60,216 bases of DNA from assembly GCA_012797845.1 (NCBI GenBank), contig JAAZOH010000002.1:1-60216 (forward strand). Reading direction: 5' to 3'. The notes under the pieces are model-generated. The model was not told the origin of the DNA. It saw nothing but the letters and a program-made list of their open reading frames with translations, and did not search any database. The stretch comes from Candidatus Beckwithbacteria bacterium. Its GTDB lineage: Bacteria; Patescibacteriota; Microgenomatia; UBA1400; UBA1449. Numbering within the stretch: the first letter of the stretch is position 1; each line of letters starts with the position of its first letter. The position numbers and the translations under genes were made by a program. Of the stretch, positions 1 through 18,192 are shown piece by piece.

Positions 1-138
1 GTTTTTGGGCTGATGGCTACTTTGCTGAAACCATAGGTAAAACCAATTACTTACAAATAAAAAAGTACATTAAAGACAATAAAGAAATTATGCCAGAGAA
101 GGATTAAAACCACGGTCTTTAGACCGTGTGTAGTTTAT
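1..138 (+). mobile_element. IS200/IS605-family element, right end (partial, contig end)
   Basis: 3' end of a Y1 transposase, then subterminal hairpin CACGGTCT-tt-AGACCGTG (111-128) and terminal tetranucleotide TTAT (135-138). Identical inverted copy at the other end of the window. Confidence 0.9.
3..107 (+). CDS. tnpA: IS200/IS605 transposase TnpA, C-terminal fragment (5' partial)
   Basis: Translates FWADGYFAETIGKTNYLQIKKYIKDNKEIMPEKD*, matching the FW..GY...T.G...I..YI motif (catalytic Tyr helix) of Y1 transposases. Confidence 0.88.
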   Translation, partial: FWADGYFAETIGKTNYLQIKKYIKDNKEIMPEKD

Positions 139-1531
139 TAGGTTTGCAATACACATTGCTTAATTTAGAAGCTATTGAATGCCAATTCCAATATCTTTTT
201 ACATGCTCTCTAGCAGTCTTTCCAAAACTAGCATATTTACAAGGATTGGAAATAAAGTCAATTAAATAGTCTCTAATTTGCTTTGGATTATTAGGATCAA
301 ACATAATTCCTATTTCAGGATCAGAAATTACTTCACGTATTCCTGGAATATTAGATGCAAAAACTGGTTTTCCACAAGCCATGACCTCTGGAATAACCAA
401 AGGGAGACCTTCTCTTGTACTGGGAAAGAAAAAACTGTCACAGGCCTGGATATAAGTTGGCATTTGATCATGAGGTACTTTGTTAAAAATATGTATACCA
501 ACCCCAAGACCTTGAGTTATTCTTTGTTTATTATAATTGTCTATTTGTATACATACTTCATTATAAATAGAATCTGGCTGTCCTTGTCCTGCTCCGCCAC
601 CTATAAAAACCAAGTAGCCCTTTTCTTGGATATCTAAGGGTAAGGTTTTCCATATGTTGATTAACACATCTGGTTGTTTTCGTTGAACAAACCTACCTAT
701 AAATAATATAACGGTTTTATCTATTGGAATTCCTAATCTAGTACGTATGTGTTGCTTTTCTTTTTTTGAACAAGGTTTAAAATGTTCATCATCAACTCCG
801 AATGGTACCATCTCAAAATTCATCTGAGGTTTAGTTAAACCAGCCTCAGAATACTCTAAAGCTATATCGGAATTAGCTCCTATGTATCCTGTCATAGCAC
901 AATTGAGTAATGCATTTAAAGGTTGATGCTTTTTTGACGATTGCCAAGTAATTTGATTTACTCCCCTTCTAGTTATTGATCCACTTGTGGCAGTACTTAG
1001 GTATGTATTAATCCCTAAGGTTCTTAATAATATTGAAGCTAGATATTGTTGCTCAGCTTTATCATTATATGTTTCAGGGGTTTCTGGAATGGGTGGAAAT
1101 ACTTCCATCCATTGCACAATATCAAAATCACTACGTCTTTTTAAAAGATAGCTGATTATATCTTCAATCCCTGCTCCTACGCCATGTACGACTATTCCTT
1201 CGGGGCTAATTTGTGTCCCTCTTTGATCCGAATGTTCATATATGCCTTTAGCAATAATCTCTGTATGATGGCCGAGTACTTTAAGACCTTGTGCCAATTT
1301 TCTTGTGCCAATTTCTAATCCTCCAATCTCATATAAAGGATGATAAGGGATGACTAAAGCAACTTTAGGTGGTTGTCTTACTATCGTTTCTTTACTGAAA
1401 CTTTCACACTGTATTCTGGCAAGATTGAATATTGCAGAAGCTACAAACGGAGAATTAATTCTCTCCCCATCAACAATAGATTGAACTAGTTGTTCAGTAT
1501 TTGGGTGAAGTGTTTCTCTACCCAGTGGCAT
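119..1531 (-). CDS. glycosyltransferase family 4 (GT-B); last ~7 codons supplied by the IS end
   Basis: GGLE N-terminal loop, FIGRFVQRKQ, FPSTREGLPLVIPEVMACGKPV motif. The stop codon lies inside the IS hairpin. Confidence 0.9.
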   Translation of the reverse strand: MPLGRETLHPNTEQLVQSIVDGERINSPFVASAIFNLARIQCESFSKETIVRQPPKVALVIPYHPLYEIGGLEIGTRKLAQGLKVLGHHTEIIAKGIYEHSDQRGTQISPEGIVVHGVGAGIEDIISYLLKRRSDFDIVQWMEVFPPIPETPETYNDKAEQQYLASILLRTLGINTYLSTATSGSITRRGVNQITWQSSKKHQPLNALLNCAMTGYIGANSDIALEYSEAGLTKPQMNFEMVPFGVDDEHFKPCSKKEKQHIRTRLGIPIDKTVILFIGRFVQRKQPDVLINIWKTLPLDIQEKGYLVFIGGGAGQGQPDSIYNEVCIQIDNYNKQRITQGLGVGIHIFNKVPHDQMPTYIQACDSFFFPSTREGLPLVIPEVMACGKPVFASNIPGIREVISDPEIGIMFDPNNPKQIRDYLIDFISNPCKYASFGKTAREHVKRYWNWHSIASKLSNVYCKPNKLHTV

Positions 1532-1535
1532 AATA

Positions 1536-2111
1536 TTAAATTTTGGACAGAGAATTAGATTTCAGTTTCTTAAATTCCTTTATAAAACGAGGATGATTAG
1601 TAGGATTATATAAAATTGAGAGTAATCCCGCTTTTCTAGCACCAATAACGTTTGGTTTACTGTCATCGATGAATACACATTCACCTGGCTTAACACCTAA
1701 TCGTCTATACATAATATCGAAAATCTTTTTATCCGGTTTCTTAATTCCTAATTTAGCAGAATTTAGCATGACATTAAAATTATCAGCAAATTTAAATTTA
1801 TGACTCCATTTATCAAATATAGTAAATGTACCATTATTAATAATCCCAGTTTTATAGATATTTTTTATCTGGTTATGAAACTCCCACATTTGTATATTTT
1901 TCTTATATCCATCTGCAATTTTGTCAGCTAATGCTTGTACATCAATTATTTTATTACCGTATCCATTTTTTATTTCATCCCAAAAAATCTTGTCATTTAA
2001 AGCGCTACCGCATTTATGATCAATAGCTAGAACTATTTTTGATGGTCTCCAACTCTTTTTTTTAATAAGCAGCGGACCAACACAATCATAGATAATGGCT
2101 TTAATTTTCAT
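1536..2111 (-). CDS. HAD-superfamily hydrolase (subfamily IA, phosphatase-like)
   Basis: IIYDCVGP motif I, INNG motif II, KKPD motif III, FIDDS..NV..A motif IV. Confidence 0.85.
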   Translation of the reverse strand: MKIKAIIYDCVGPLLIKKKSWRPSKIVLAIDHKCGSALNDKIFWDEIKNGYGNKIIDVQALADKIADGYKKNIQMWEFHNQIKNIYKTGIINNGTFTIFDKWSHKFKFADNFNVMLNSAKLGIKKPDKKIFDIMYRRLGVKPGECVFIDDSKPNVIGARKAGLLSILYNPTNHPRFIKEFKKLKSNSLSKI

Positions 2112-3180
2112 ATTGGTGAATAGCTGGTAATTCTAAATTATGTTTATGAGTAAACAATTCAATTGTACGAACTTTTTCTGATCTTTCAATTATAGTTTGA
2201 AGTTCTTGGACCCTATCCTGAAATGAATGATCTTGTAGTGCTTGTCTTGCATTAAAACTAGGTAACTCCCCTTGGTAATCAGGGCAAAGAGTTATATTGC
2301 CATCTGTAGCTACTCGAACAAGGCATCTTCCCTCCTGGCAAAAAATAGGACAATCCCAACACTCTGAATCTCTCATAGTGTAACGACTATCTTTAAAAGA
2401 AAGCACTAAACCATTAGGTAATAGTGCTCGATGGAAAGCAACACCAAATTGATCTCTAGTAGTATGAAAATTTGCCTTTGGATATAGTTGTGTTACTGTA
2501 GTTTGGAATTCTGGATACGCAACAAACTCTCGTTCCCAAAACGATTTATCACTTCTGTCCAAGTTTGGATAATGTACCAAGTCTAAATATTGGACTTGCT
2601 TAACACCTAAACCCTGGCAAAAATCAATAAAACGTTCCATTTCTGAGGGGGTCATTTCACTTCGTAATAATACCCGGTTTATGCGTGTATATATTAATTG
2701 GCTAGAAGCACGAATTCCCTCCAATACTTTATGTAAATCTCCACCTCCTGTAATTTCCCGAAAACTGTCTGGATCACATGTGTCCAGGCTCACTTTAAGC
2801 ACATTTAATCCTTTTGGTAAACCACCATTCTTTTCTAAGTAAGTTGTTAACAATATTCCATTAGTAGTAATATCCACTTCTTTATATCCCATTTCGCTTA
2901 TTTCTGTAATAATTTTATCCCAATCATGTCTCAATAATGGTTCTCCTCCTGTGCCTCTCATTTTAGTCATTCCACCCTGTTCATGTAGCTGTCTGAGTAT
3001 AGTTAGAAGATCATCAGAACTGAGGTTTCCTTCATGCATAGGTGCTTTCCGAAAGTCTTCCATAGCAGCTGGAAACGCATCGTTTCTATAAGAAGAACCA
3101 CCGCAGTAATTACAAAATAAATTGCAATAAGGCCATAATGCAACTCTAGCAGTTGTATCAGCAAGAGTTTCTTTATTCAT
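2101..3180 (-). CDS. radical SAM enzyme, MoaA-like fold with twitch-type auxiliary Fe-S motif
   Basis: CNLFCNYC (CxxxCxxC), TGGEPLLR, ITTNG, VSLDT, C-terminal CWDCPIFCQEGRC..RVATDG...C. No C-terminal GG motif of true MoaA. Confidence 0.85.
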   Translation of the reverse strand: MNKETLADTTARVALWPYCNLFCNYCGGSSYRNDAFPAAMEDFRKAPMHEGNLSSDDLLTILRQLHEQGGMTKMRGTGGEPLLRHDWDKIITEISEMGYKEVDITTNGILLTTYLEKNGGLPKGLNVLKVSLDTCDPDSFREITGGGDLHKVLEGIRASSQLIYTRINRVLLRSEMTPSEMERFIDFCQGLGVKQVQYLDLVHYPNLDRSDKSFWEREFVAYPEFQTTVTQLYPKANFHTTRDQFGVAFHRALLPNGLVLSFKDSRYTMRDSECWDCPIFCQEGRCLVRVATDGNITLCPDYQGELPSFNARQALQDHSFQDRVQELQTIIERSEKVRTIELFTHKHNLELPAIHQYEN

Positions 3181-3210
3181 AACTATCTTTATAGGACACT
3201 AAATTAGTGT

Positions 3211-3236
3211 TATTATAATACGAAAATTATAATACG
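3211..3236. promoter_or_regulatory. candidate bidirectional -10 region between divergent operons
   Basis: TTATAATACG occurs twice (3213-3222, 3227-3236). TATTATAATA (3211-3220) is palindromic, giving TATAAT on both strands in the 88-bp divergent gap. Confidence 0.45.
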
Positions 3237-3268
3237 CAATAAATATATACATATTATTTATTTGAAAA

Positions 3269-4354
3269 ATGGAAACACCTGAACATCTAGCACAAACACT
3301 AATACATAAAAAAGATATCGTATGTACTCAGTGTGAAGAACCGACCATCTATCCTTTAACTGGGGGGATTATTAATATCAACGAAGTTATCTGTTCTCCT
3401 TGTTTCGATTGTCAGCCAGTAGTTGCTAGTATTTACATTAATGCTCCAGAGAGAAGAGATAAGGAATTATTTATTAGGCAAATCCTTATGCAACAACCAG
3501 GAATACCTGTGCCAACGCTCCTAGATTCAGGAGATACTTTTATTGATGGTCAACTTATAACGTATATGGTGAAAGAACTTATTCCGGGTGATACCTTATA
3601 TTCAGTTTTACATAACCGGTTACCTGAATTATCTAAGATTGATTTAGAATCTATTGCTCTGCAACTTGGAAATTATTTAGCTAGAATTCACCAATGTTAT
3701 TTTCCTTGTTTTGGAGAAATTAATGGGGATCAGTTGTCTCCTAGGTCTGAATGGCGTGATGTTTTCTGGGAAAGATTTTTACGAAGAGCAAAATCAGTAT
3801 CAAATCTTCCTTCGGACATTCAAGTTGGACCCTATCAAGCCATTGATATCCAAGTACTATTGCCTATCTTAATAAAAAAAGTGCAACAAGAAATTGGTAT
3901 ATTAGATTCAGTCACAACTCCAGTTTTAGTACATGGTGATTGCCATTTTCTCAATGTTATGGCTAATTCAACAAAGAAATGGGGTATATCTGCGATACTG
4001 GATATGGAAGATGCACATGCTGGTGATGCTGAAGTAGATTTGGCAATCATTGAGAGTCAACTTAATTTATCTCCTGAGTTTAGTACTGCATTTAAAACCG
4101 TATTGCCTGCTTTTCTTCACGGCTATAGTATGAAAAGGAGAATATCTCCTGAGTTTAAACAAAAAAGAAAACTTTATCATATTCCTTGGTCACTCTCTTA
4201 TTTTGAGGCAGTCTTACAGATGGATACACAAATTCATCCAATAACTGAACAAATAATAGGATATATGCATCGTCACTACCAGGTACTTAAAGGAATATCG
4301 CAAGGATTAACACTAGAAGAAATAGGAGTTCCCTGTATAGTAGATAATGATTAA
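3269..4354 (+). CDS. aminoglycoside phosphotransferase / choline kinase-like (APH) family kinase
   Basis: GIPVP, HGDCHFLNV (Brenner HGDxxxxN motif), ILDMEDAHAGD metal-binding motif. Confidence 0.88.
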   Translation: METPEHLAQTLIHKKDIVCTQCEEPTIYPLTGGIININEVICSPCFDCQPVVASIYINAPERRDKELFIRQILMQQPGIPVPTLLDSGDTFIDGQLITYMVKELIPGDTLYSVLHNRLPELSKIDLESIALQLGNYLARIHQCYFPCFGEINGDQLSPRSEWRDVFWERFLRRAKSVSNLPSDIQVGPYQAIDIQVLLPILIKKVQQEIGILDSVTTPVLVHGDCHFLNVMANSTKKWGISAILDMEDAHAGDAEVDLAIIESQLNLSPEFSTAFKTVLPAFLHGYSMKRRISPEFKQKRKLYHIPWSLSYFEAVLQMDTQIHPITEQIIGYMHRHYQVLKGISQGLTLEEIGVPCIVDND

Positions 4355-4665: not shown

Positions 4666-5175
4666 AGTCCGTGGTTTCCTAAACATGTTATTGATCTTGT
4701 ACATACTTAATCACAGAACTCAGATTCCTATGGCCAACAGTACCAACAAAGTACCCTTCAGACCAAAAGCTATTTGCCCAGACAGCTTCTTCCAAGCTTG
4801 GAAACAGTTCTCGCAGCTTTTTACTGGTACCACCTTTGATCAGCTGCATAATCCTACTCGGACTGTATGTGGGTTTGGCTCCAAGCAGCAGGTGTATATG
4901 GTCAGGTTGGATGTTAAGCTCCACAATCTCAAAGTTGTTAATCTGCGCACAAAAACGAATCATGCCATCCAAACGTTTTTTAATGTTTCCTACCAGTTTT
5001 CGCTTACGATACTTGGGTATAAAAGTAAAGTGATACGTAATATCATAGGCAGTGTGAGTAATATGTTTAATTTCCATATTCTCAAGTTTATCAAATTGCC
5101 AAAACATTCGTTTTTGTGCTTACAAGGATTGCATTCCTCCCACGCCCTTACAGGGCGGGGTTTCTTGCAATGTTT
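4646..5175 (-). mobile_element. complete IS200-type element (tnpA only, no tnpB), 530 bp
   Basis: LE hairpin CCC-A-CGCCCT-tac-AGGGCG-GGG (~5139-5160), RE hairpin CCACGGACT-aa-AGTCCGTGG (4655-4674). On the minus strand both hairpins are preceded by GAAA and both cleavage sites read TCAT. Confidence 0.92.
4688..5077 (-). CDS. tnpA: IS200/IS605 family transposase TnpA (Y1, HUH)
   Basis: YHFTFIPKYRK, DHIHLL (HUH), KGGTSK, FWSEGYFVGTVG, IKYVQDQ catalytic Tyr. Start set at ATG 5077. Confidence 0.95.
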   Translation of the reverse strand: MEIKHITHTAYDITYHFTFIPKYRKRKLVGNIKKRLDGMIRFCAQINNFEIVELNIQPDHIHLLLGAKPTYSPSRIMQLIKGGTSKKLRELFPSLEEAVWANSFWSEGYFVGTVGHRNLSSVIKYVQDQ

Positions 5176-5634
5176 ATGAACTCTGTTACCCAAGAAGATA
5201 GTCTCGGTTGTAGTCTTGCTTGTATTGCCCAGCTAACCCACAAATCCTATCAAGCAATTTTAAAATTAGTCGATCATCAAAAAGCTCAAACTCAGGGATT
5301 TTATTGTAAAGAATTAGTATCTATTCTATCTTACTTAGGCTATAACTATAACTATAAATACTTAAAACCAAGACTTAAAAAACTAATTTATACAAATGGG
5401 GTCATTGTCTTTATAAAACGTTCAAAAAAATATCCTAACGGACATTATTTAATTCGTGTTAATAAAACATGGATGGATCCCTGGATAAATTTTTCTGCTA
5501 CCGCAAGGATTATCGATGCAACGGCAGGTTTTAGAAAACGGCTACCTGGAACTCCAATTTATGCTTTGTTCCCAAGGCAAATATTAGTTAGTGAACAAAA
5601 AAATACCTGCTGCTACAAAAGTAACAACAGGTAA
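5176..5634 (+). CDS. peptidase C39-like (papain-fold) protein
   Basis: QEDSLGCSLAC (Gln/Cys), GHY (His), MDP (Asp). The true start ATG 5176 coincides with the IS target site. Confidence 0.6.
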   Translation: MNSVTQEDSLGCSLACIAQLTHKSYQAILKLVDHQKAQTQGFYCKELVSILSYLGYNYNYKYLKPRLKKLIYTNGVIVFIKRSKKYPNGHYLIRVNKTWMDPWINFSATARIIDATAGFRKRLPGTPIYALFPRQILVSEQKNTCCYKSNNR

Positions 5635-5682
5635 ATTTTATTTAATTTTTGATAATAAAATATAAATCTCTTTCTATATCAA

Positions 5683-6480
5683 CTACATATGTATGCTAGA
5701 CATATTGGATATGTCATGCATGCTGTAGATATATTCCAAAACTTGTTCAACTGTAGCTAAAGCCTTAGTAATAGCTAGCAGTGGGTCTTTGGCATAAAGG
5801 CTAATGTATTTCCAACTACTGCCTGAATGGTCTTCATATCCATAAAGATTAGTTAAGACTGCAGCTGTAAATTCAGCTACCACTTCCTGATCAACATTTT
5901 GCCCAGCTGTCAATTTGCCTTTTATCCGGGCATGGATAGCATGAGCTAGTTCGTGGAAAAAGACTGAGGGGTCAAAACTAGCTAAACGGATCCTTGTCCC
6001 ATCAGTAGTACAATCTCCATACCTATCTTCTATGGTAGGGGTATAACTAACGTTAATCTTTAGTTTTTCAGCCAGATCCATAAGCGGGGGTAATTTGGCA
6101 GGAGTGTATAGAGAAATAGGAGTTTCCCCTTTGGTAGCAGAGGCTGGAAAAACCGGTACTGGATAAAAACCTATACAAGTATATTCTTCCCGATCAGCTT
6201 CTCCATCAATATCTTTGACCATATGTGGTCTGATGATATATACAGCCTTACTACCTTTCTGGACAAATCTACCTGCCTTTTGCCATTGTCTAAAACCTCT
6301 GCAATCTAATTCTTCAGCCTGGATATAGGCTAGAACCCGGTTACTTAAGCTCCAGTTTCGAGCTGGAGCTTGGGGATCTAACCGAATCCTGACGGTATTA
6401 GTAATGGGAGATAAATCTCCATTCTTAAACTTCTCGACCACCTGATCGAGACTTTGTTTAACCTTAGGAGAGAATTTCAT
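5683..6480 (-). CDS. ardC: ArdC-like ssDNA-binding antirestriction protein with zincin (HExxH) domain
   Basis: WSLSN..L, GFRQWQKAGRFVQKGSKA (ArdC N-terminal domain), HELAHAIH, EVVAE. Strong AAGGAGG SD upstream. Confidence 0.8.
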   Translation of the reverse strand: MKFSPKVKQSLDQVVEKFKNGDLSPITNTVRIRLDPQAPARNWSLSNRVLAYIQAEELDCRGFRQWQKAGRFVQKGSKAVYIIRPHMVKDIDGEADREEYTCIGFYPVPVFPASATKGETPISLYTPAKLPPLMDLAEKLKINVSYTPTIEDRYGDCTTDGTRIRLASFDPSVFFHELAHAIHARIKGKLTAGQNVDQEVVAEFTAAVLTNLYGYEDHSGSSWKYISLYAKDPLLAITKALATVEQVLEYIYSMHDISNMSSIHM

Positions 6481-6536
6481 AAACCCTATCCTCCTTCTCT
6501 ACTGCAGGAATAGTAATTAAGCACCAAGCTTGCAGC

Positions 6537-6659
6537 TAGCTCACTGCTCAACCATTCCTACTACACACGAAGTCAAGGTGCGGCATTTGTGTCCTGATTT
6601 TTTGAAGGATGCAGATGCTGTGCCTTGACCGTGTGACACAATAGAAAAGCAGTGAGCTA
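6537..6659 (+). other. ~123-nt imperfect hairpin (ssDNA or RNA structure) between ardC and the R-M operon
   Basis: Outer stem 6537-6548/6648-6659 (12 bp perfect), middle stem 6564-6569/6630-6635, inner stem 6572-6595/6606-6629 (24 contiguous pairs, 6 of them G-T/U wobble on the + strand). Confidence 0.85.
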
Positions 6660-6721
6660 AGAGACTATATTTTTATTATTAGTTGAGGAAATATAACTTT
6701 GGATATAGAATTATAGGGATT

Positions 6722-7645
6722 ATGCCAATCTTTAAAGTCAACAAACAAAAGCTGGAATCAATTAAGGAAGTTAAAATTGATTTGGAAAAAGACATACAAA
6801 CTCTTACGGAAAATAATCTGACTACTATTTTTAATCTTCAATTTGTTTGTTCTGAATTTACTCATAATAACTTACGTATTGATACTTTGGCTTACGATCA
6901 AGAAACTCAATCCTTTGTGATTATTGAATATAAAAAAGATCGAAGTTTTTCTGTTATTGATCAAGGCTATGCTTATTTAGCTTTAATGCTAAATAATAAA
7001 GCTGACTTTATTTTGGAATACAATGAAAAGACTAATCAAAATCTTAAGCGAGAGAATATAGATTGGTCACAATCACGGGTTATCTTTATCGCTAATTCTT
7101 TTACCAAATATCAACAGCAGGCTATTAACTTTCAAGATTTACCAATTGAACTTTGGGAAGTTAAAAAATACAGCAATAACACTTTTTTATATAACCAACT
7201 TCAATCACCCCAAGCTTCAGAATCGATTAAGACAATTAGTAAAAATAAAACCATAAGCAAAGTTTCACAAGAGGTTAAAAAGTATACAATTAGCGATCTT
7301 TTTAAAGTAGATTGGAGAAACTCAAGAGATTTATTTGAATCTTTAAGACCTAGAATTCTAGAAATAGATGAAAGAATTGAAGAAAAATTTAATAAATTTT
7401 ATGTAGGATACAAAATTGGGTCATATAATCTTTGTACGTTAAATGTTTATAAATCTAAACTGGAGTTAGACTTGGTAAGAGTTGATAAAAAAGATCTAAA
7501 TGATCCAGAGAATAAAATAAAACTACGACCATGGAAAGAAAATAATTGGGGTAAGTTATGTAGATATACTATCCTATCTAAAAATGACTTCGATTATGCT
7601 ATGTTTTTAATTAAACAAGTATATGAAAAGTTTTATAAGGAGTAG
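6722..7645 (+). CDS. PD-(D/E)xK (NucS/EndoMS-like) nuclease fused to DUF5655-like domain
   Basis: RIDTLAYD..FVIIEYKK nuclease motif, DQG..Y, C-terminal H/NWG-type domain. ATG start 6722 preferred over TTG 6683. Confidence 0.7.
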   Translation: MPIFKVNKQKLESIKEVKIDLEKDIQTLTENNLTTIFNLQFVCSEFTHNNLRIDTLAYDQETQSFVIIEYKKDRSFSVIDQGYAYLALMLNNKADFILEYNEKTNQNLKRENIDWSQSRVIFIANSFTKYQQQAINFQDLPIELWEVKKYSNNTFLYNQLQSPQASESIKTISKNKTISKVSQEVKKYTISDLFKVDWRNSRDLFESLRPRILEIDERIEEKFNKFYVGYKIGSYNLCTLNVYKSKLELDLVRVDKKDLNDPENKIKLRPWKENNWGKLCRYTILSKNDFDYAMFLIKQVYEKFYKE

Positions 7646-7647
7646 CC

Positions 7648-9102
7648 ATGTTCGAACAAGCCTTCAAAAATATTGATGATGTTTTATGGAAAGATGCAGG
7701 AGTGAGTAACGAGCTTGATTATATCGAGCAAACCTCCTGGATTTTGTTTTTAAAATATTTGGATGATTATGAAAAAGATAAAAAAACTGAAGCTGCCTTG
7801 GCTGGGAAGCAATATCGATTTTTAATTGATGAAGCATTTCGTTGGGAATCTTGGGCTTGTCCAAAAACTCAAGATGGTAAACTGGATCACAATCAGGCTT
7901 TATCTGGTGATGACCTTAGAGACTTTGTTGACCGTCAACTGTTCCCCTATCTCAAAAAATTTAGAGAAAAAGCTGAAAGCCCAGATACAATCGAATATAA
8001 AATCGGAGAAATATTTTCCCAGCTGCGAAACAAAATTCAAAGTGGCTATACCCTAAGAAATGTCTTAGACATTATCGACCAGATGAAATTCCGCTCCCAG
8101 CAGGAAAAATATGAACTGTCGCATCTTTATGAAGCCAAAATCCAAAATATGGGTAATGCCGGCCGTAATGGTGGCGAGTACTACACACCAAGACCACTGA
8201 TTAAAACTATTGTCAAAGTAGTTGATCCGCAGATTGGAGATCAAGTTTATGACGGGGCGGTTGGTTCGGCCGGATTTTTGATCGAGGCGTTTGAGTATAT
8301 GCGCAACTTGCGGCCACTGTCGACCAATGACGTCACAACTTTGCAAAAGCAAACCTTTTTTGGTAAAGAGAAAAAATCGCTGGCGTATATCATCGGGATT
8401 ATGAATATGATCCTGCATGGCATTGATGCCCCCAATATTTTGCATACCAACACCCTTTCTGAAAATATTTTGGATATCCAGGAAAAAGACCGCTTTGATG
8501 TGGTGCTGACCAATCCCCCATTTGGCGGCAAAGAACGCAAAGAAGTCCAGCAGAATTTCCCGATCAAAACCAGTGAAACCGCCTTTTTATTTCTGCAACA
8601 TTTTATAAAATCTCTAAAAGCAGGAGGTAAAGCCGGGATTGTAATTAAAAATACTTTTCTGTCCAATACCGACAATGCTTCCATTTCCCTGCGCAAACTG
8701 CTTTTAGAAAACTGCAACCTGCATACGATTTTGGATTTGCCAGGCGGCGTTTTTACCGGAGCTGGAGTCAAAACCGTAGTCTTATTTTTCCAAAAAGGTT
8801 CAGCAACCCAGAAGGTTTGGTTTTACCAGCTTAACCTTGACCGCAACTTAGGCAAAACCAATCCGATCAATGAAAATGATTTGGCAGAATTTTTGACTTT
8901 GCAAAAAGACAAAGCTGATAGCCGAAATTCCTGGACAGTAGATATTAAAGACGTAGACGAAAAAACCTATGATCTGTCAGTCAAAAATCCAAATAAAAAT
9001 GATGAGGTGGTGTTGCGCGAGCCGAATGAGATTTTGGAAGAGATGGAAAAGTTAGACTTAGAAAATAAAAATATAATGTTGGAAATTAAAAACTTACTAT
9101 AG
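7648..9102 (+). CDS. hsdM: type I restriction-modification methyltransferase subunit M (N6-adenine)
   Basis: GEYYTPRPLI, YDGAVGSAGFL (motif I), NPPFGG (motif IV), TSETAFLFLQH. Confidence 0.95.
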   Translation: MFEQAFKNIDDVLWKDAGVSNELDYIEQTSWILFLKYLDDYEKDKKTEAALAGKQYRFLIDEAFRWESWACPKTQDGKLDHNQALSGDDLRDFVDRQLFPYLKKFREKAESPDTIEYKIGEIFSQLRNKIQSGYTLRNVLDIIDQMKFRSQQEKYELSHLYEAKIQNMGNAGRNGGEYYTPRPLIKTIVKVVDPQIGDQVYDGAVGSAGFLIEAFEYMRNLRPLSTNDVTTLQKQTFFGKEKKSLAYIIGIMNMILHGIDAPNILHTNTLSENILDIQEKDRFDVVLTNPPFGGKERKEVQQNFPIKTSETAFLFLQHFIKSLKAGGKAGIVIKNTFLSNTDNASISLRKLLLENCNLHTILDLPGGVFTGAGVKTVVLFFQKGSATQKVWFYQLNLDRNLGKTNPINENDLAEFLTLQKDKADSRNSWTVDIKDVDEKTYDLSVKNPNKNDEVVLREPNEILEEMEKLDLENKNIMLEIKNLL

Positions 9103-9106
9103 TTCT

Positions 9107-10921
9107 ATGAGAATACAAACGATAAGTATTGCAAATTATCCTCCAATTAAAAATTTAAAAATAGAGAACTTAAGTAATGTTGTAATTATTGCTGGAGCGA
9201 ATGGTTCAGGTAAAACAAGACTGAAAGAGGCTATTATTCAAACTTTTCAAGGTAGTCCTCAAATGTCGCTAGAGATTCGAGCCACTAAAGATGAAGAAAA
9301 ACAGAGATTTAATGATGATTCAATTAATGTGATTCAGGGACAGTCAAATCAAATATTAAATCAATACATGCAAAGTCGTAGTTTTGGTCGGGGTAAATAT
9401 GTTGGATCATTAGTTCAGATTGATTCTGATAGAAATATTACAACTACAAAATATAACAAAATAAATTATCAAACCTCTGATCCAGATGACCAAGATTCAC
9501 CAAGCACGTTTTATTGTCAAAATTTTGCAAATAGATGGCAAGATTTTATGAATTATATTCATCAAAAAGTGGCTGCATATAATACAAAATTAGCTGAGGA
9601 AGTAAAAAACAACCAAGAAAAAAAGGGACGCGAAATATTACTAAAATTGCCACATCCACTAGATAAATACAAAGCTATATTCAAGAAACTACTACAAGAT
9701 AAAGAATTACAAGACATAGACCCAGCTAATCCAGGCGAATTTAAATACAAAACTGATGAGGGAATAATACTGCCTTTCAAGGCATTAAGTTCTGGTGAAC
9801 AGGAAATTATCAAAATAATATTTGATATTGAAAGGAAAGATATTAAACATTCAGTTATTCTTGTTGATGAACCTGAATTACATTTACACCCTACCCTTAC
9901 TTTCAAATTAATAGAAAATTTGAAGACAATTGGCGAACAAACAAATCAGTTTATATTTCTCACTCATTCTGCAGATATTATTTCAACTTATTATTCGACC
10001 GGAGATGTATATTTTATTGATGCAGAACAAACTGGACAAAACCAGGCTCATAAATTAAGTGAGCTTGATCATAGTCATAAAACATTAGTAAAACTTATAG
10101 GCGAAAATCTAGGTTTATTTGCTGTAGGCAAAAAACTTATTTTTATTGAAGGAGATAGTTCAAGTATTGATCGAATGACTTACCATTCTATAGCCCAAAA
10201 ATATCTTCCTGATGCTAAAGTAATTCCAATAGGTTCCGTTGAGAGTATAGGAACACTAAATATCATAGAAGAACAAATAAGAAATGCAATTTTTGGTATA
10301 GACTTTTATATGATTAGGGATCGTGATGGTTTAGCAAATGATCAGATCAATGAATTAGAAAAAAGTGGGAAATTAAAATGTTTGAAACGAAGACATATAG
10401 AAAATTATTTTTTTGATGAAGGAACCTTATTTAAGGTTGCTGAAAGATTGTGTCTAACTACAATAAATCCACAAATTACCCCTACCTATATTATTTCCGA
10501 ATTAAAAAAAATTGCTTCTAAAATGTTTAATTTAAATCTTTTGCAAAGCATAAAAGATTATTTAGTACTTAATCACAACCTAGACATTCCTACTGTTCGG
10601 AACATAGATAAAAAAAGCTCTGAAGAAATAAAAATAGAAATGATAAGTGGAGTAAAACAATCTTTGTCAAAAATCAATATCGATCTTTCTGAAGTAAAAC
10701 TAGACCAATGGATTACTACAGAAAAACTCAAATTAGAACGTTCACTTCAAGCTGATGAGTGGATTATTGATTTCCGTGGCAAAGAAATATTTTCTGTATT
10801 TTGTTCCAATGTTTTTCATGATGATGTTTTGAAAATAAGACAAGCGTATGTAGATATAGCACTTCAAGAAAAACCTAATATCTTTAAAGATATTATTGAC
10901 ATATATCAAAGTTTTAATTAA
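9107..10921 (+). CDS. ABC/AAA ATPase fused to TOPRIM-like nuclease (OLD-family-like)
   Basis: GANGSGKT Walker A, LSSGEQ signature, ILVDEPELHLHP Walker B/D-loop, THS H-loop, then FIEGD...D and RDRD TOPRIM motifs and IENY. Confidence 0.85.
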   Translation: MRIQTISIANYPPIKNLKIENLSNVVIIAGANGSGKTRLKEAIIQTFQGSPQMSLEIRATKDEEKQRFNDDSINVIQGQSNQILNQYMQSRSFGRGKYVGSLVQIDSDRNITTTKYNKINYQTSDPDDQDSPSTFYCQNFANRWQDFMNYIHQKVAAYNTKLAEEVKNNQEKKGREILLKLPHPLDKYKAIFKKLLQDKELQDIDPANPGEFKYKTDEGIILPFKALSSGEQEIIKIIFDIERKDIKHSVILVDEPELHLHPTLTFKLIENLKTIGEQTNQFIFLTHSADIISTYYSTGDVYFIDAEQTGQNQAHKLSELDHSHKTLVKLIGENLGLFAVGKKLIFIEGDSSSIDRMTYHSIAQKYLPDAKVIPIGSVESIGTLNIIEEQIRNAIFGIDFYMIRDRDGLANDQINELEKSGKLKCLKRRHIENYFFDEGTLFKVAERLCLTTINPQITPTYIISELKKIASKMFNLNLLQSIKDYLVLNHNLDIPTVRNIDKKSSEEIKIEMISGVKQSLSKINIDLSEVKLDQWITTEKLKLERSLQADEWIIDFRGKEIFSVFCSNVFHDDVLKIRQAYVDIALQEKPNIFKDIIDIYQSFN

Positions 10922-10995
10922 TTTTTATAAAAAATTTTAATAACTAAAGAATTAATTAAGATATACGTTTTTACGCTAAATAAAAAAGAATATGT

Positions 10996-11409
10996 ATGAG
11001 CATTAATCATCAAGAAATAATAACCGAGATTAATAAAAATATTACTACAATAATAACTGTAATTTTGATAATTTTTACTTTCTTTTTTTATTATTCCAGT
11101 GCTTATTTTTTTGCATTTCTAACCTTAGTTTTACTTTTGATTAGTCCCAGAGTTAATGACATTAAAAAGATCAAGGTAAGTTTTAAAAATGTTGATATTG
11201 AATTTAGAGAACTTAATAAAGAATTAAAAGAAGTTATACAATCCAAAAATACATTAGAAAATAAACTTAAAGGAGCTAAAAAAATACTTAGCAATATGTT
11301 TAAACTTGGTTGTCGTATTGGAGAGGGAAAGGCTTTAGGTACAATTTCAGATGTAAAAATGATTGAAGACGAGGAAGGAAATATAACAGTTCAATATGAT
11401 GAATCCTAA
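10996..11409 (+). CDS. hypothetical membrane protein (two TM helices plus coiled region)
   Basis: Hydrophobic N-terminal pair of segments; overlaps the hsdS start. Confidence 0.6.
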   Translation: MSINHQEIITEINKNITTIITVILIIFTFFFYYSSAYFFAFLTLVLLLISPRVNDIKKIKVSFKNVDIEFRELNKELKEVIQSKNTLENKLKGAKKILSNMFKLGCRIGEGKALGTISDVKMIEDEEGNITVQYDES

Positions 11410-12490
11410 CTGGCAAACAAAAAAACTAGGCGAAGTAATAAAACTTGAATATGGAAAACCATTACCTAAATCTGATAGAAAAACTGATGGTAGATATCCG
11501 ATTTATGGCGCCAATGGAATTAAAAGCTGGAGTAATAAATTTTATTATGATAAGCCCACTATTATTGTTGGCAGGAAAGGTTCTGCTGGTGAAATTAATC
11601 TAGTGGAAGAAAAATTTTGGCCATTAGATGTTACTTATTTTACAACTTTTGATGCTAAAAAATATGATTTAAAATTTTTATATAACCTTTTAAAAAATCT
11701 TGAACTCCCAAAATTAGCAAAAGGTGTGAAGCCTGGGATTAATAGGAATGATATTTATAAAATAAAAGTTCCCCTTCCTCCCCTTTCCGAACAACGTCGC
11801 ATAGTCAAAATTCTGGATGAGGTTTTTGGACAGATTGAGAAAGTCAAAGCAAATACTCAAAAAAATCTGGAAAATAGCAAAGAGTTGTTTGAATCGTATT
11901 TGAAATACTCCTATGAAGGAAACAATGAATGGTTAACTAAAAACTTATTTGAGGTTGCAGAAATAAATAAAGATAAAAATGGTAGAAAAGACCTTCCATA
12001 TATTGGGATGGAGGATATTGAATCTAATTCTGGGAAGTTTATCGGATCATTTGAACCAAAAAGTGTAAAGAGTTCATCTTTTTATTTTAATGATAAACAT
12101 ATTTTATATGGTAGATTAAGACCTTATTTAAATAAGGTACTGATACCAGATTTTGAAGGACATTGTTCGACGGAAATATTTCCGATTAGAGTAAATAATA
12201 GTTTGGATAAAAAGTTTTTATTTTACTGGCTTATAAAAAGATCAACTACAGAAAGAATTAATTCTACATGTACAGGAGCCAGAATGCCGAGAGCAAATAT
12301 GAATAAAGTTTTTAAAGACTTTAAAGTTGTATTTCCAAAATCTCTTACTGAGCAAAAGCAAATAGTCGCTAAGCTGGATGATTTATCAGAGAAAACTAAA
12401 AAATTAGAACAAAATTATCGGCAGAAATTGGCGGATTTGGAGGAGCTTAAGAAATCAGTTCTCAATAAAGCGTTTAGTGGTGAGTTGTAA
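11396..12490 (+). CDS. hsdS: type I restriction-modification specificity subunit S
   Basis: Two TRDs separated by PLPPLSEQRRIV..LD and closed by EQKQIVAKLD...KAFSGEL conserved helices. Confidence 0.95.
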   Translation: MMNPNWQTKKLGEVIKLEYGKPLPKSDRKTDGRYPIYGANGIKSWSNKFYYDKPTIIVGRKGSAGEINLVEEKFWPLDVTYFTTFDAKKYDLKFLYNLLKNLELPKLAKGVKPGINRNDIYKIKVPLPPLSEQRRIVKILDEVFGQIEKVKANTQKNLENSKELFESYLKYSYEGNNEWLTKNLFEVAEINKDKNGRKDLPYIGMEDIESNSGKFIGSFEPKSVKSSSFYFNDKHILYGRLRPYLNKVLIPDFEGHCSTEIFPIRVNNSLDKKFLFYWLIKRSTTERINSTCTGARMPRANMNKVFKDFKVVFPKSLTEQKQIVAKLDDLSEKTKKLEQNYRQKLADLEELKKSVLNKAFSGEL

Positions 12491-12500
12491 AAATAAAGAT

Positions 12501-12538
12501 AGATTCCGGATCAGGCTTTCAATCTGTCCGGAATGACA
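12501..12538. repeat. REP-like palindrome
   Basis: AGATTCCGGATC...TCCGGAATGAC, with stem ATTCCGGA/TCCGGAAT. Confidence 0.65.
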
Positions 12539-12543
12539 TGGGT

Positions 12544-12608
12544 TAGTTTACAATTATTTACCAACTAGTTGACATAAGAGAAGCCATAGTTTACAATTAG
12601 TTGACATA
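12544..12608 (+). promoter_or_regulatory. four TAGTT(T/G)ACA boxes, candidate operator of the downstream wHTH protein
   Basis: TAGTTTACAATTA at 12544 and 12587; TAGTTGACATA at 12566 and 12598, ending at the ATG. Confidence 0.6.
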
Positions 12609-13666
12609 TGATAAACAAAGAAGAAATACTTAAAACCATAAAAGATAAAGGCATTGTCAAAAGCTCTGATTTGGTGGCTAGTTTTGGTGTGTCAAGACAA
12701 TATATTGCCAGACTTTTAGCCCAGCTGGTTTCTGAAAATGAAATTGTCAAAGTTGGCTCAACCAGAGGTGCTTTGTATGCTACTGAAAGTTATTTAGCTA
12801 AAAATCCTCAATCTGCTGCTGCTGTTTACACTAAAACTTTTAAAAATACTAATCTGGAAGAGCATAAGATTGTTGATGAGATAAAAACCAGCTTTTCCTT
12901 GTTTGATCAATTGCCGGAAAATATCAAAAGTATTTTTGAATACGCTTTTTCAGAAATGCTCAATAACGCTATTGAGCATTCGCACTCTAAAACTATTAAA
13001 GTAAAAGTCAGTTTAAATCAGAAAGAGCTTTCCTTTGTGATTGATGATTTTGGTATAGGAGTATTTAGAAGCATCATGAATAAAAGAGGCCTCAAATCTG
13101 AGCTGGAAGCGATTCAAGATTTGCTCAAGGGCAAAACTACAACAGCGCCCAAGCTCCACTCTGGAGAGGGAATCTTCTTTACTTCTAAAGTTGGAGATCA
13201 ATTTGCTTTGGATAGTTTTGGTTACCAACTTATGACAGATAATACCATTGATGATCTGTTTGTCGGCAAAACCAAGGGACAAAAACAAGGAACAAGAGTT
13301 ACTTTTAAAATCGGTATTGATAACAAACATCATCTCAATGATGTTTTTAAAGAGTATACCAATGTGAGTAATGATGGAGACTATGGTTTTGACAAAACGG
13401 AAATAAAAGTGAGGCTCTACACCATGGGTGGGGTGTATATTTCCCGCTCTCAAGCACGCAGAGTTTTGGCAGGACTGGAAAAATTTAAAGTCATCGTGAT
13501 GGACTTTGATAAAGTGCCGACAGTAGGTCAGGCATTTACCGATGAAATTTATCGGGTCTTTAAAAATAAATATCCGGAAATAAAAATTGAGAATATAAAT
13601 ACGAATGAAGCTGTCAATTTTATGGTGGAGCGGGCCAAGAAAGAAGCAGAAGTAGGAAGAACATAG
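12608..13666 (+). CDS. wHTH - HATPase_c - STAS-like (DUF4325) protein
   Basis: N-terminal HTH (SRQYIARLL), EMLNNAIEHS N-box, DDFGIG G1, HSGEGIF G2, GTRV; C-terminal SRSQARR..DF..V..VGQAF.DE. Confidence 0.85.
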   Translation: MINKEEILKTIKDKGIVKSSDLVASFGVSRQYIARLLAQLVSENEIVKVGSTRGALYATESYLAKNPQSAAAVYTKTFKNTNLEEHKIVDEIKTSFSLFDQLPENIKSIFEYAFSEMLNNAIEHSHSKTIKVKVSLNQKELSFVIDDFGIGVFRSIMNKRGLKSELEAIQDLLKGKTTTAPKLHSGEGIFFTSKVGDQFALDSFGYQLMTDNTIDDLFVGKTKGQKQGTRVTFKIGIDNKHHLNDVFKEYTNVSNDGDYGFDKTEIKVRLYTMGGVYISRSQARRVLAGLEKFKVIVMDFDKVPTVGQAFTDEIYRVFKNKYPEIKIENINTNEAVNFMVERAKKEAEVGRT

Positions 13667-13692
13667 TGTGAAAGTTTGTAACCATCTTTTAT

Positions 13693-16053: not shown

Positions 16054-16139
16054 ACAAATTAATTAAGTTTCCAGATTGATAAAATAATTAGGTTTACAAC
16101 TATTTTAAAATGATATAAAACTCAGGTTTTATATAAACT

Positions 16140-16886
16140 ATGGAAAAAATAATCAAATCCGAATTAGAACCTCATATACAGAAACTTATTGATGATTTGG
16201 TAATAAAATATGGTCCAATCGCTATCGTATTAATAGGACTATTTTTAATAATAGTAATAATAACATGGGATATTCTAAAAAATAAAATAAGAGGTGAAGT
16301 AAAAAAGGGAGTCGATAAACATAAAGCAGAGATTGATAATACCTACACTAAACAAATTGAACATTATCGTCTTTATGTTGCTAAACAACACAAAGCCTAT
16401 GCCAAATTAAATAAATATTTATTAAAAACAGAAGGTTTGGCAGTATTTCAAGCTTTAAAGACATATCCAGATTTTACAGAATATACAGAAACAGAAATTT
16501 CGAAATATCTTAAAGAAAGGAACGCATCAGAAAATGAATTGAAACAATTCATTAGTTTAATGGGTGATTCTAAAGCTTTACAAAAAGAAATGCAAAACTA
16601 TACAGAATTATTTAATGTAAGAAAAGCTCGTGTTTTTTTTCATAAAACTAAAAATCATTATTGGATTAACGCATTATATTTTTCCAATAAAATTGAAGAG
16701 CAATTTAAAGATATTACTAAAATATTGAATGAAATGATTATTATTAGAGAAATACCGTCAAATGATAATAAACTTACGAAAGAAGATATGCAGACATTGA
16801 GAAGTTTACAAAAAAACTTGCAATCAAGTATTGATAAAATAGTCAAACAAATGAAGGAAGAGTTATCTGCAGGCTTAGCTAAGTAA
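16140..16886 (+). CDS. hypothetical protein with single N-terminal TM helix and helical body
   Basis: Clean 248-aa ORF co-oriented after hsdR; no recognisable motif. Confidence 0.7.
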   Translation: MEKIIKSELEPHIQKLIDDLVIKYGPIAIVLIGLFLIIVIITWDILKNKIRGEVKKGVDKHKAEIDNTYTKQIEHYRLYVAKQHKAYAKLNKYLLKTEGLAVFQALKTYPDFTEYTETEISKYLKERNASENELKQFISLMGDSKALQKEMQNYTELFNVRKARVFFHKTKNHYWINALYFSNKIEEQFKDITKILNEMIIIREIPSNDNKLTKEDMQTLRSLQKNLQSSIDKIVKQMKEELSAGLAK

Positions 16887-17015
16887 GTTAGTTTATTAAG
16901 TCCTATAATCTATACTTTACCACCTTCTTCTGATATAATTTGGTTCTAATTTAAGTCTATTTTTAGGTTTAGCTTTTTATAATCAATACTATAAGTATGC
17001 TAATTTTTATTTACC

Positions 17016-17576
17016 ATGAAAGATAGTGAGCAATCAATCGGACTATATGACTATGCCGAGCTACAATCATTTTTAGCTGCTCCATTTAGACAGTTAGAAA
17101 CTAGGCAAATACCACAAGCTCCTAGTAAAGAATTTTTGATGTGGATACCAACACAGAGACATATTGAAGTAGGTTTTGTATACAAGTCTAGTATCTGGTA
17201 CCTTGTAAAAGCTAGTGATTGGGGAATCCCGATTTGGTTAATACCTCCAGATGCTGATGTCTTACTTCATTCTCATTACGAAATTCCCGGACAAGATCCA
17301 ATAAAAGCAACCATACCTAGCGCTGAAGACTTTTTAAATGCTTCACCAACTGCCCATAATTTAATTACTTCAACTATTGGTTTAACTCAATTCCATACAG
17401 TTGATTCCTTACATCATCTGGAATTAAGAGCCATCGCAGAATCAGAAAGATATAGAACCGATATTGATGGCTACTTAAGCTTTCTTGAAAGTCTTGATGC
17501 TAGGTATGAAGTGTATCTATGGGAAGAAATGTCGGATAACCAATTAGCTTGTCTTTTGAAAAGCAGTTACAAATGA
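17016..17576 (+). CDS. hypothetical protein, possible JAB/MPN-like metallo-motif
   Basis: IEVG ... LLHSH ... PSAED resembles the JAMM E..HxH..SxxD motif with an elongated spacer. Confidence 0.45.
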   Translation: MKDSEQSIGLYDYAELQSFLAAPFRQLETRQIPQAPSKEFLMWIPTQRHIEVGFVYKSSIWYLVKASDWGIPIWLIPPDADVLLHSHYEIPGQDPIKATIPSAEDFLNASPTAHNLITSTIGLTQFHTVDSLHHLELRAIAESERYRTDIDGYLSFLESLDARYEVYLWEEMSDNQLACLLKSSYK

Positions 17577-17605
17577 AAATTATCCATATATAATTAAAAC
17601 TATAT

Positions 17606-17818
17606 ATGACTACAGCTACTCTAATTCAAGTCGGCAAAAAACTAAAAAAGGCAAGACAAAAAAGAAGTTTAACGCAGCAGCAAGTTGCCGATAAAGTGGG
17701 TATTCACGTCAGTTATTACTACCGCATTGAGCGGGGCGTTGTTAATCCTTCTATAGAAATATTAGAACAAGTTTGTAAGGTATTAAAAATTAAAGGAAGT
17801 GAGATCTTACCTTTTTAG
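17606..17818 (+). CDS. XRE-family helix-turn-helix transcriptional regulator
   Basis: LKKARQKRSLTQQQVADKVGIHVSYYYRIERG..NPS. Confidence 0.92.
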   Translation: MTTATLIQVGKKLKKARQKRSLTQQQVADKVGIHVSYYYRIERGVVNPSIEILEQVCKVLKIKGSEILPF

Positions 17819-18096: not shown

Positions 18097-18192
18097 TGCT
18101 ATATTATAACTTATTTGACCTCCAGTAATCTTTCTCTCTATCCCTATATGGATAGTTAAGCCTGACATATCAATAATTATATAATAATACGT

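Follow-up and report, generated by a model that had tools for sequence, protein, structure and literature searches.

Positions 119 to 4354 of a 60,216-nucleotide stretch of DNA from Candidatus Beckwithbacteria (positions 1 to 60,216 of contig JAAZOH010000002.1, assembly GCA_012797845.1; this whole stretch is hereafter called the window) carry genes for a radical S-adenosylmethionine (SAM) enzyme, a haloacid dehalogenase (HAD)-type hydrolase, a glycosyltransferase (GT) of family 4 (GT4) and a small-molecule kinase of the aminoglycoside phosphotransferase (APH) fold. This cassette is a tailoring cluster centred on a twitch-type radical SAM enzyme; it is very rare, and its occurrence centres on the candidate phyla radiation (CPR). 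Compared with known families by sequence, the enzyme represents a new twitch-type subfamily that is a sister of MoaA and is not itself MoaA. We are highly confident that the four genes constitute a conserved, non-MoaA and uncharacterised small-molecule tailoring cassette.

The gene arrangement was exactly, in coordinates and strands, as the original prediction had described it: three tightly coupled genes with an APH-like kinase gene diverging from them (Table 1). An 11-bp overlap (2101-2111) joins the radical SAM gene to the HAD gene, and the HAD and GT4 genes, which are separated by a 4-bp gap (1532-1535), are translationally coupled. All four genes are intact, and their Pfam matches lie well over the cut-offs, with E-values of 1.2e-32 for Glycos_transf_1, 1.8e-10 for HAD_2, 2.4e-19 for Radical_SAM and 5.7e-15 for APH. 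A hairpin that spans the GT4 stop codon may mark the end of the operon; this call is tentative because the T-tail (GTTTTAATCC) is poor.

The original prediction also placed a bidirectional TATAAT region between the radical SAM and kinase genes. An 11-bp direct repeat, ATTATAATACG, was found there at 3212-3222 and 3226-3236, with a 14-bp period, and both copies carry TATAAT on the plus and the minus strand. This part of the claim was borne out, but a consensus promoter scan lent it no statistical support, with 13 sites against 20.2 expected in shuffled sequences. As the scan showed no enrichment, the region is treated here as a sequence feature and not as a demonstrated promoter. A shared promoter is plausible from the letters of the region, and the repeat could also serve as a shared operator besides the -10 boxes.

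The radical SAM enzyme displays the features of its superfamily, namely the CX3CX2C motif and a partial TIM-barrel core (PF04055). Its MoaA-like character was confirmed, MoaA being the nearest relative both in sequence and in predicted fold. MoaA models were the top NCBIfam matches, at about one third of their cut-offs: 113.5 bits for TIGR02668 (cut-off 325.25), 111.3 for TIGR02666 (284.05) and 98.3 for NF001199 (231). When the window was searched by tblastn, E. coli MoaA matched the core of the enzyme only, with 27% identity over 194 residues. The AlphaFold2 (AF2) model, which had a predicted local distance difference test (pLDDT) score of 92, found MoaA as its best fold match in the PDB, with template modelling (TM) scores of 0.67/0.73 at 20% identity. 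Viperins that bind cytidine or uridine triphosphate (CTP/UTP) came next. The model superposes on MoaA, viperin, SuiB and SkfB. Models for other candidate relatives scored far lower, with 38.4 bits for the prokaryotic viperin model NF038283 (cut-off 180) and 32 bits for BlsE (cut-off 400).

Separation from genuine MoaA was nevertheless sharp. About 43 family clusters, at 37-67% identity, emerged when 5.8 billion proteins were searched, and the score fell from 238 to 86 bits between the last family member and the first genuine MoaA. The Mob_synth_C domain (PF06463) was absent from the window protein and from all 43 family members, and was present in every true MoaA match (P0044-P0056). As predicted, the protein lacks the C-terminal GG motif that is typical of bacterial and eukaryotic MoaA (PMC9026282). 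No member of the family ends in GG; the window protein ends in ...IHQYEN and E. coli MoaA in ...YIGG. The predicted lack of moaC also held, as tblastn with the E. coli proteins detected no counterpart of MoaB, MoaC, MoaD or MoaE in the window (E-values of at least 0.34), and the genes that recur around the enzyme in 33 representative loci include none for molybdenum cofactor (Moco) synthesis. Bona fide MoaA was rejected on the basis of these scores, the missing Mob_synth_C domain and GG tail, the lack of Moco neighbours and two residue-level differences described below, the loss of the R266 equivalent and the gain of a cysteine. Source annotations (JGI names) label members of this CPR family as MoaA, and that label is wrong.

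Family members were compared in an alignment of 39 sequences (A1), and residues were mapped onto S. aureus MoaA by profile alignment, with a manual alignment of the stretch past C264 that was anchored on the C-terminal cysteine; residue roles and numbering for MoaA follow PMC9026282. The CX3CX2C motif is nearly invariant and is followed by a family-specific PGAMEDFR segment. Many MoaA positions have counterparts in the family: T73 corresponds to T77, S126 to S131, D128 to D133, K163 to R166 and N165 to N168. MoaA possesses three strictly conserved arginines that contact guanine, R17, R266 and R268 (PMC9026282). The first corresponds to R12, which is K or R throughout the family, and the last to the invariant R289; the position of R266 is occupied by L, T or I. 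The equivalent of R192 is variable.

The most distinctive region lies downstream of the core, where K263-D264, C274, C277, C281, Q282, E283, G284, R289, T292-D293 and C299 are invariant. It includes the CxxC-x3-C tail of the original prediction (C274-x2-C277-x3-C281) and a further invariant cysteine, C299, that had not been noted earlier. At the sequence level, C274, C277, C281 and C299 make up the twitch feature, a predicted auxiliary [4Fe-4S] site. C274, C277 and C299 correspond to MoaA C261, C264 and C278; in MoaA three cysteines hold the auxiliary cluster and leave its fourth Fe site open to GTP N1. C281 is an additional cysteine within an 8-residue insertion, together with QEG, that is absent from MoaA. 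It is a candidate fourth ligand of the auxiliary cluster, one that would block the position at which MoaA coordinates guanine N1; four cysteines probably hold the auxiliary [4Fe-4S] cluster. If so, the cluster would act in electron transfer and not in guanine binding, and the chemistry would not be guanosine triphosphate (GTP) 3',8-cyclisation.

The family is narrowly distributed. In a scan of one genome per GTDB species, clear relatives of the radical SAM enzyme (32-67% identity) were confined to CPR/Patescibacteria metagenome-assembled genomes (MAGs), including Levybacteria, Gottesmanbacteria, Shapirobacteria, Saccharibacteria, WWE3 and other Patescibacteria, with the exception of one contig labelled Rikenella. 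This 2.6-kb contig (L009, DYKN01000117.1; loci other than the window are given L numbers) was binned as 'Rikenella microfusus' and carries a CPR-type radical SAM-HAD pair with 51% and 40% identity to the window proteins; mis-binning is the probable explanation. Streptomyces, Micromonospora and Thermoactinomyces hold weaker relatives that are full-length (25-28%), and metagenome contigs supplied about 25 more loci. The best matches suggest that the window derives from a CPR bacterium of the Microgenomates type. IMG/VR viral contigs yielded no family member, only generic and partial radical SAM matches of at most 32% identity, and the idea of a phage-borne auxiliary gene was rejected on this result. 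No description of the family or the cassette turned up in our literature searches.

To compare gene contexts, open reading frames (ORFs) were called within 8 kb on either side of the radical SAM gene in 47 loci, clustered, and reduced to 33 non-redundant loci. Radical SAM enzymes at least 46% identical to that of the window form one clade in a neighbour-joining tree, and this clade holds all of the kinase, HAD and GT4 contexts. The APH kinase gene lies divergently upstream of the radical SAM gene in the window, L092, L089, L002/3/4, L088, L094, L010, L184 and L186, and every known gene of the kinase subfamily, nine in total, adjoins and diverges from the gene for this radical SAM enzyme. The HAD partner is present in the window, L005, L092, L009, L089, L088, L001, L002 and L186. 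GT4 directly follows HAD in the window, L005/6/8 (Levybacteria), L001 and L089, and in these relatives (L005/L006/L008, L001, L089) the three genes frequently overlap or nearly abut. The sub-cut-off scores and this synteny in other genomes bear out the original prediction on the two points it had itself named as decisive: the enzyme does not cluster with bona fide MoaA, given the fall from 238 to 86 bits, and the kinase, HAD and GT4 genes recur around one radical SAM clade. GT4 is missing from L088, L186 and L002, and may therefore be an optional tailoring step. Additional genes also enter the cassette. An NPPL-motif amino-methyltransferase (MTS/RsmD-like) is inserted at L088, L089 and L186, and in L001 a HisG homologue scoring over the hisG cut-off sits between the radical SAM and HAD genes, the cassette is followed by a sortase gene and by additional genes of the GT2 and GT4 families, and a YcaO/nitroreductase cluster lies upstream.

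The kinase matched PF01636 at 56 bits (cut-off 23.2) and PF03881 (Fructosamin_kin) at 29 bits, and its subfamily comprised four clusters in the 5.8 billion proteins. The catalytic H222-x-D224-x4-N229 and the metal-binding D245 are invariant in eight sequences. The APH(3') equivalog model reached 16.7 bits against a cut-off of 205, and no sequence-level relative was found in the PDB. Foldseek matched a weak AF2 model (pLDDT 65) to AmiN, APH(2''), aminopropanol kinase and homoserine kinase. The N-terminus (3323-3412, residues 19-48) contains a CxxC...CxxCxxC pattern (C19, C22, C42, C45 and C48). These cysteines are common to L010, L089 and L092 and absent in L002, L088 and L094, and they may form an optional zinc ribbon.

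In the HAD hydrolase, D9 of motif I, K125 of motif III and D149-D150 of motif IV are invariant in six orthologues and in E. coli YihX, an alpha-D-glucose-1-phosphatase (alignment A4), and the three motifs are conserved across eight orthologues in all. Motif I reads D-[CLM]-V-G in all orthologues (D9-C-V-G in the window) and thus has no general-acid Asp at +2. YihX, which is among the best matches of the protein, likewise lacks this Asp (FDLGNV). The best NCBIfam matches were TIGR02247, YjjG and the glucose-1-phosphatase model, and TIGR01509 was matched at 46.6 bits (cut-off 29.4).

The GT4 protein matched PF00534 at 113 bits (cut-off 26.4) and carries the E-x7-E motif as EGLPLVIPE at residues 374-382. 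Its nearest solved relatives are sucrose-phosphate synthase (SPS) Tll1590, PimB', MshA and GlgM, most of which use small phosphorylated acceptors. MshA was the top NCBIfam match, and BshA, SPS and GlgM also matched. All scores fell far under the equivalog cut-offs: 91.5 against 462.5 for MshA, 54.8 against 576 for the SPS domain and 84.9 against 302 for glgA_Coryne. Only the donor-binding C-terminal half aligned well; the N-terminal acceptor domain had no Pfam match. Close kin numbered about five among 1.84 billion 50%-identity cluster representatives, two of them full-length and three at 37-41%.

Other branches of the radical SAM family (32-42% identity) carry different partners. Their commonest neighbour, present in 19 of 24 loci, is a truncated leucyl-tRNA synthetase (LeuRS)-like protein of about 470 aa, which consists of the catalytic core only, with degenerate HIGH/KMSKS motifs and without editing or anticodon-binding domains. 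A stand-alone inosine monophosphate (IMP)-cyclohydrolase domain of PurH, which matches the first 196 positions of PurH at 180 bits, occurs in 11 loci, and a PP-loop protein of the WbuX-like N-acetyl-sugar amidotransferase type adjoins the radical SAM gene in five. Further partners are SAM methyltransferases, an unassigned 176-aa protein, CysRS, ValRS and transketolase. In L091, hisG, hisA/F, hisI and hisE lie upstream. The combination of radical SAM, LeuRS-like, PurH domain and PP-loop ATPase genes constitutes a second cassette type (L011-L017, L090, L091 and L096-L115), which may be more interesting than that of the window.

The distant Streptomyces, Thermoactinomyces and Micromonospora relatives lie in different settings again. 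In Streptomyces sp. NPDC002588 (L018, 6211-12794), the radical SAM gene forms an overlapping operon with adenylate-kinase-like and pyruvate-kinase-like genes, adjoined by a hisG-like gene (over the HisG cut-off), DUF1152 and GNAT genes. The two kinase-like genes suggest a supply of nucleoside triphosphates from nucleoside monophosphates (NMPs), and the locus looks like an uncharacterised nucleotide-based biosynthetic cluster. L019 of Thermoactinomyces mirandus (5842-11954) carries GT4, the radical SAM gene, a 296-aa ORF, an NAD-epimerase/dehydratase, a DegT aminotransferase, a divergent TrpRS-like gene and a normal TrpRS gene; it is an aminosugar-type cluster with an aminoacyl-tRNA synthetase (aaRS) paralogue. 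In Micromonospora (L021), RmlD is present and the radical SAM gene overlaps an aminotransferase gene. The two recurrent themes around the family are purine/nucleotide enzymes and nucleoside diphosphate (NDP)-sugar/aminosugar enzymes.

The reading that we prefer for the window cassette combines phosphorylation by the kinase, radical chemistry on a nucleotide-like substrate, glycosylation and dephosphorylation. We hold it tentatively, at slightly less than an even chance, with the substrate class, the order of the steps and the biological role all inferred. The APH-fold kinase would place a phosphate on a hydroxyl group of a precursor resembling a nucleoside or sugar, the phosphate serving as a handle. 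The radical SAM enzyme would then take the nucleotide-like phospho-substrate into a pocket of the MoaA/viperin type, cleave SAM and abstract a hydrogen atom of the ribose or sugar moiety, with the auxiliary cluster working in electron transfer and not in base binding. GT4 would transfer a sugar from an NDP-sugar onto the phosphorylated intermediate, and the YihX-type HAD would strip the phosphate, following the 'synthase/phosphatase' or 'cryptic phosphorylation' logic of other pathways. This route would yield a metabolite derived from a nucleoside or sugar and both modified and glycosylated. As the distribution of the cassette is patchy, it probably serves under certain conditions, for antagonism, defence or envelope decoration, and not in housekeeping.

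A nucleotide-type substrate is suggested by the MoaA and viperin folds, the conserved MoaA residues, the recurrent purine/nucleotide genes in the neighbourhood and the NPPL-motif amino-methyltransferase within the cassettes of L088, L089 and L186. The synthase/phosphatase logic is suggested by the phospho-acceptors used by GT4 kin, the coupling of the HAD and GT4 genes and the YihX-like character of the HAD. A documented precedent exists in polyoxin and nikkomycin biosynthesis, in which a nucleoside monophosphate is the substrate of the radical SAM enzyme PolH (NikJ) and afterwards loses its phosphate to a dedicated phosphatase, PolJ (NikL) (PMC5365060). The likeness is one of logic; the cassette has no enolpyruvyl transferase, and the organisms and other genes differ. 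With respect to the original prediction, a nucleotide- or sugar-derived small-molecule route remained the most economical reading, and the family was absent from the literature that we found; the likeness it drew to BlsE and BtrN proved generic, as the BlsE score indicates.

Several observations weigh against this pathway. The equivalents of MoaA R192 and R266 are not conserved in A1, and those of K69 and R71 are only partly conserved. HisG, the IMP-cyclohydrolase domain and NMP kinases occur mostly in other clades and distant relatives and not in the window, and the NDP-sugar genes beside the Thermoactinomyces and Micromonospora relatives fit an NDP-sugar substrate equally well. The kinase model is poor, and the generic APH-fold kinases that the fold search yielded indicate no more than a small-molecule kinase fold. 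A HAD protein without the Asp at +2 need not be a phosphatase, and GT4 is not found in every member of the clade.

The sugar-related neighbours fit an alternative that we consider rather unlikely, in which the radical SAM enzyme modifies an NDP-sugar by oxidation, epimerisation or dehydration, GT4 passes the product to an envelope acceptor, and the kinase and HAD serve sugar-1-phosphate salvage. DesII, BtrN and AviX12-type enzymes modify sugars in these ways. The distant relatives L019 and L021 lie beside epimerase/dehydratase, DegT, RmlD and aminotransferase genes, the WbuX-like protein adjoins the radical SAM gene in five loci, and GT2, GT4 and sortase genes follow the cassette in L001. The predicted fully Cys-ligated auxiliary cluster would suit a BtrN-like oxidation, the auxiliary cluster of BtrN being fully Cys-ligated. 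The APH fold also comprises anomeric sugar kinases, and YihX belongs to the sugar-1-phosphatases. The cassette, however, contains no nucleotidyltransferase, flippase, polyprenyl-phosphate transferase or membrane protein; the best GT4 kin act on soluble phospho-acceptors, and in L088 and L186 the core occurs without any GT. A glycoside resembling mycothiol or a compatible solute is a still more doubtful proposal. Here the radical SAM enzyme would make an unusual polyol or cyclitol phosphate, to which GT4 would add a sugar and from which the HAD would take the phosphate, and in other clades the aaRS-like ligase would aminoacylate the product as MshC does. Mycothiol synthesis employs a GT4, a phosphatase, an aaRS-paralogue ligase and a GNAT. 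MshA is the top GT4 match, accompanied by BshA, SPS and GlgM; GNAT genes lie close to the cassette in L002, L088 and L089, and the truncated LeuRS-like gene is the commonest neighbour in other clades. Set against this are the MshA score (91 against 462), the lack of any LmbE/MshB-type deacetylase among the genes seen and the frequency of GNAT, NUDIX and HIT genes as fillers of CPR genomes, and we know of no precedent for a radical SAM cyclitol synthase. NUDIX, His_Phos_1, GNAT and methyltransferase genes in L002 and L089 had also prompted a comparison with tunicamycin biosynthesis (TunB/TunD/TunG/TunN/TunM), which was set aside as a loose analogy only; no TunA-type dehydratase was present, and such genes are common CPR fillers.

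From the adjacency of a defence island, the original prediction had suggested chemical anti-phage defence or host manipulation. A defence product would be a chain-terminating or otherwise toxic nucleotide analogue, as with prokaryotic viperins (pVips) and their associated kinases, and we regard this as improbable. In the window, the cassette is bordered by an IS200 element, an ArdC-like gene, the PDC-S18 gene and a type I restriction-modification (R-M) system, and in L005, the closest relative, by an Eco47II R-M system. Viperins rank second among the fold matches, and the PADLOC model names catalogue pVips with kinases. The PADLOC pVip match amounted to 47 bits over the generic radical SAM core, however, and the NCBIfam viperin model reached 38 against 180. 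The kinase is of the APH type and not an NMP kinase, and a GT with a HAD occurs in no PADLOC 2.0 defence system. A known defence system was rejected because PADLOC returned this weak, generic pVip match for the radical SAM enzyme and nothing meaningful for the other three proteins. The claim comes down to adjacency: defence genes flank the cassette in the window and in L005, but the neighbours in L001, L002, L088, L089 and L186 are housekeeping or biosynthetic. With defence neighbours at these two loci only and no PADLOC model, a defence role is possible and weakly supported. Maturation of a ribosomally synthesised and post-translationally modified peptide (RiPP), in which the twitch enzyme would cross-link or epimerise a peptide that is later glycosylated, is very improbable. 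Weak SPASM/twitch matches (StsB, WgkB, SkfB, SuiB) and the YcaO/nitroreductase cluster upstream in L001 point in that direction, but MoaA and viperin are far closer than any peptide maturase, the cassette has no RRE/PqqD domain, peptidase or exporter, and about 30 loci showed no co-conserved short ORF beside the radical SAM gene, on which ground this candidate was rejected. Least credible of all is ordinary Moco biosynthesis by a divergent MoaA (GTP 3',8-cyclase). The best sequence and fold match, the R17 equivalent and the three shared cluster cysteines agree with it; scores at a third of the cut-offs, the sharp bit-score gap, the missing Mob_synth_C domain, GG tail and R266 equivalent, the extra invariant Cys and the lack of moaB/C/D/E in the window and in representative neighbourhoods do not.

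The mobile/defence island lies immediately to the right of the kinase gene, at 4688-20000 of the window. Its members are listed in Table 1 together with features from the remainder of the window, among them an AcrB-type RND transporter paired with an HlyD-like adaptor in an apparent CPR genome.

Table 1. Features of the window, with the cassette first and the island and other features after it.
Feature	Position	Strand	Evidence
GT4-family glycosyltransferase (GT-B, retaining-type), 470 aa, 55-residue N-terminal extension	119-1531	-	PF00534
HAD-IA hydrolase, YihX-like, 191 aa	1536-2111	-	PF13419 / PF00702
Radical SAM enzyme, twitch-type, 359 aa, centre of cassette	2101-3180	-	PF04055
APH/ELK-fold small-molecule kinase, 361 aa, divergent from radical SAM gene	3269-4354	+	PF01636, PF03881
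CNLFCNYC = CX3CX2C (C19, C23, C26), SAM-binding [4Fe-4S] motif of radical SAM enzyme	3103-3126	-	
Auxiliary-cluster region of radical SAM enzyme, C274-x2-C277-x3-C281...R289...C299 (CWDCPIFCQEG...RVATDGNITLC)	2284-2361	-	
Divergent intergenic region, 88 bp, AT-rich	3181-3268	.	read from sequence
Possible operon end: 7-bp GC-rich hairpin across GT4 stop codon, weak T-tail GTTTTAATCC	111-128	-	terminator-like match
IS200-type TnpA	4688-5107	-	
ArdC-like HExxH protein	5683-6480	-	
PDC-S18 candidate defence gene	6683-7645	+	strong match, 347 bits
hsdM, type I R-M	7648-9102		
AAA_15/AbiEii-like ATPase, inserted among R-M genes	9107-10921		
hsdS, type I R-M	11396-12490		
HATPase+DUF4325 protein, inserted among R-M genes	12608-13666		
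hsdR, type I R-M	13693-16053		
Serine recombinase	18193-19839		
Two tRNAs	22703-22776; 59634-59704		
AcrB-type RND transporter (1111 aa; 552 bits) and HlyD-like adaptor	23926-28690	-	
glmS ribozyme/riboswitch, upstream of 582-aa ORF 53172-54920 (-)	55030-55223	-	50.7 bits, cut-off 37

Comparison with characterised systems places the proposed nucleotide-tailoring cassette among several partial likenesses. With MoaA (TIGR02666/TIGR02668; PDB 1TV7/2FB3), the radical SAM enzyme has in common the CX3CX2C motif and a C-terminal auxiliary site with three homologous cysteines. It differs by the addition of C281 with the QEG insertion and of PGAMEDFR, and by the lack of Mob_synth_C, the GG tail and Moco neighbours. 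The likeness to pVips consists of the second-closest fold, the pairing with a kinase gene and the occasional placement in a defence island. In contrast to the enzyme described here, viperins have no auxiliary cluster; the kinase of the cassette is of the APH type, and its HAD and GT4 have no pVip counterpart. MshA-MshA2, the sucrose-phosphate synthase/phosphatase pair and GlgM represent the best GT4 kin and use phosphorylated small acceptors, and in the cassette a coupled HAD gene lies directly upstream of GT4. This HAD is YihX-like, however, and resembles neither sucrose-phosphate phosphatase nor trehalose-6-phosphate phosphatase, and GT4 scores far under the cut-offs for these systems. BtrN, DesII and BlsE are twitch or related radical SAM enzymes that act on (amino)sugar or nucleoside-sugar substrates in GT-containing clusters. 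BlsE and DesII were among the fold matches, but this group is much more distant than MoaA (TM 0.45-0.53).

Three of the four proteins belong to narrow lineages, with four clusters for the kinase, about five representatives for GT4 and about 43 clusters for the radical SAM enzyme. Since the MoaA labels are wrong for this family, the Mo-cofactor capacity of CPR genomes should not be inferred from them. A broader hypothesis, which we regard as speculative and on balance unlikely, is that the family carries out an undescribed radical reaction on a purine nucleotide to form a CPR-specific warhead, which the window clade would phosphorylate and glycosylate and other clades would aminoacylate by means of the LeuRS-like ligase, giving products akin to nucleoside antibiotics that act against phages, hosts or competitors. 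If true, these would be chain terminators or aaRS-inhibitor mimics made by ultra-small episymbiotic bacteria. The biosynthetic capacity of CPR/Patescibacteria is considered minimal, their specialised metabolites are nearly uncharted, and orphan radical SAM clusters are common. The cassette, with its four small genes and exclusive partners, is compact and experimentally tractable; it could reveal new radical SAM chemistry close to that of MoaA and viperin, and possibly a nucleotide-derived effector of CPR bacteria.

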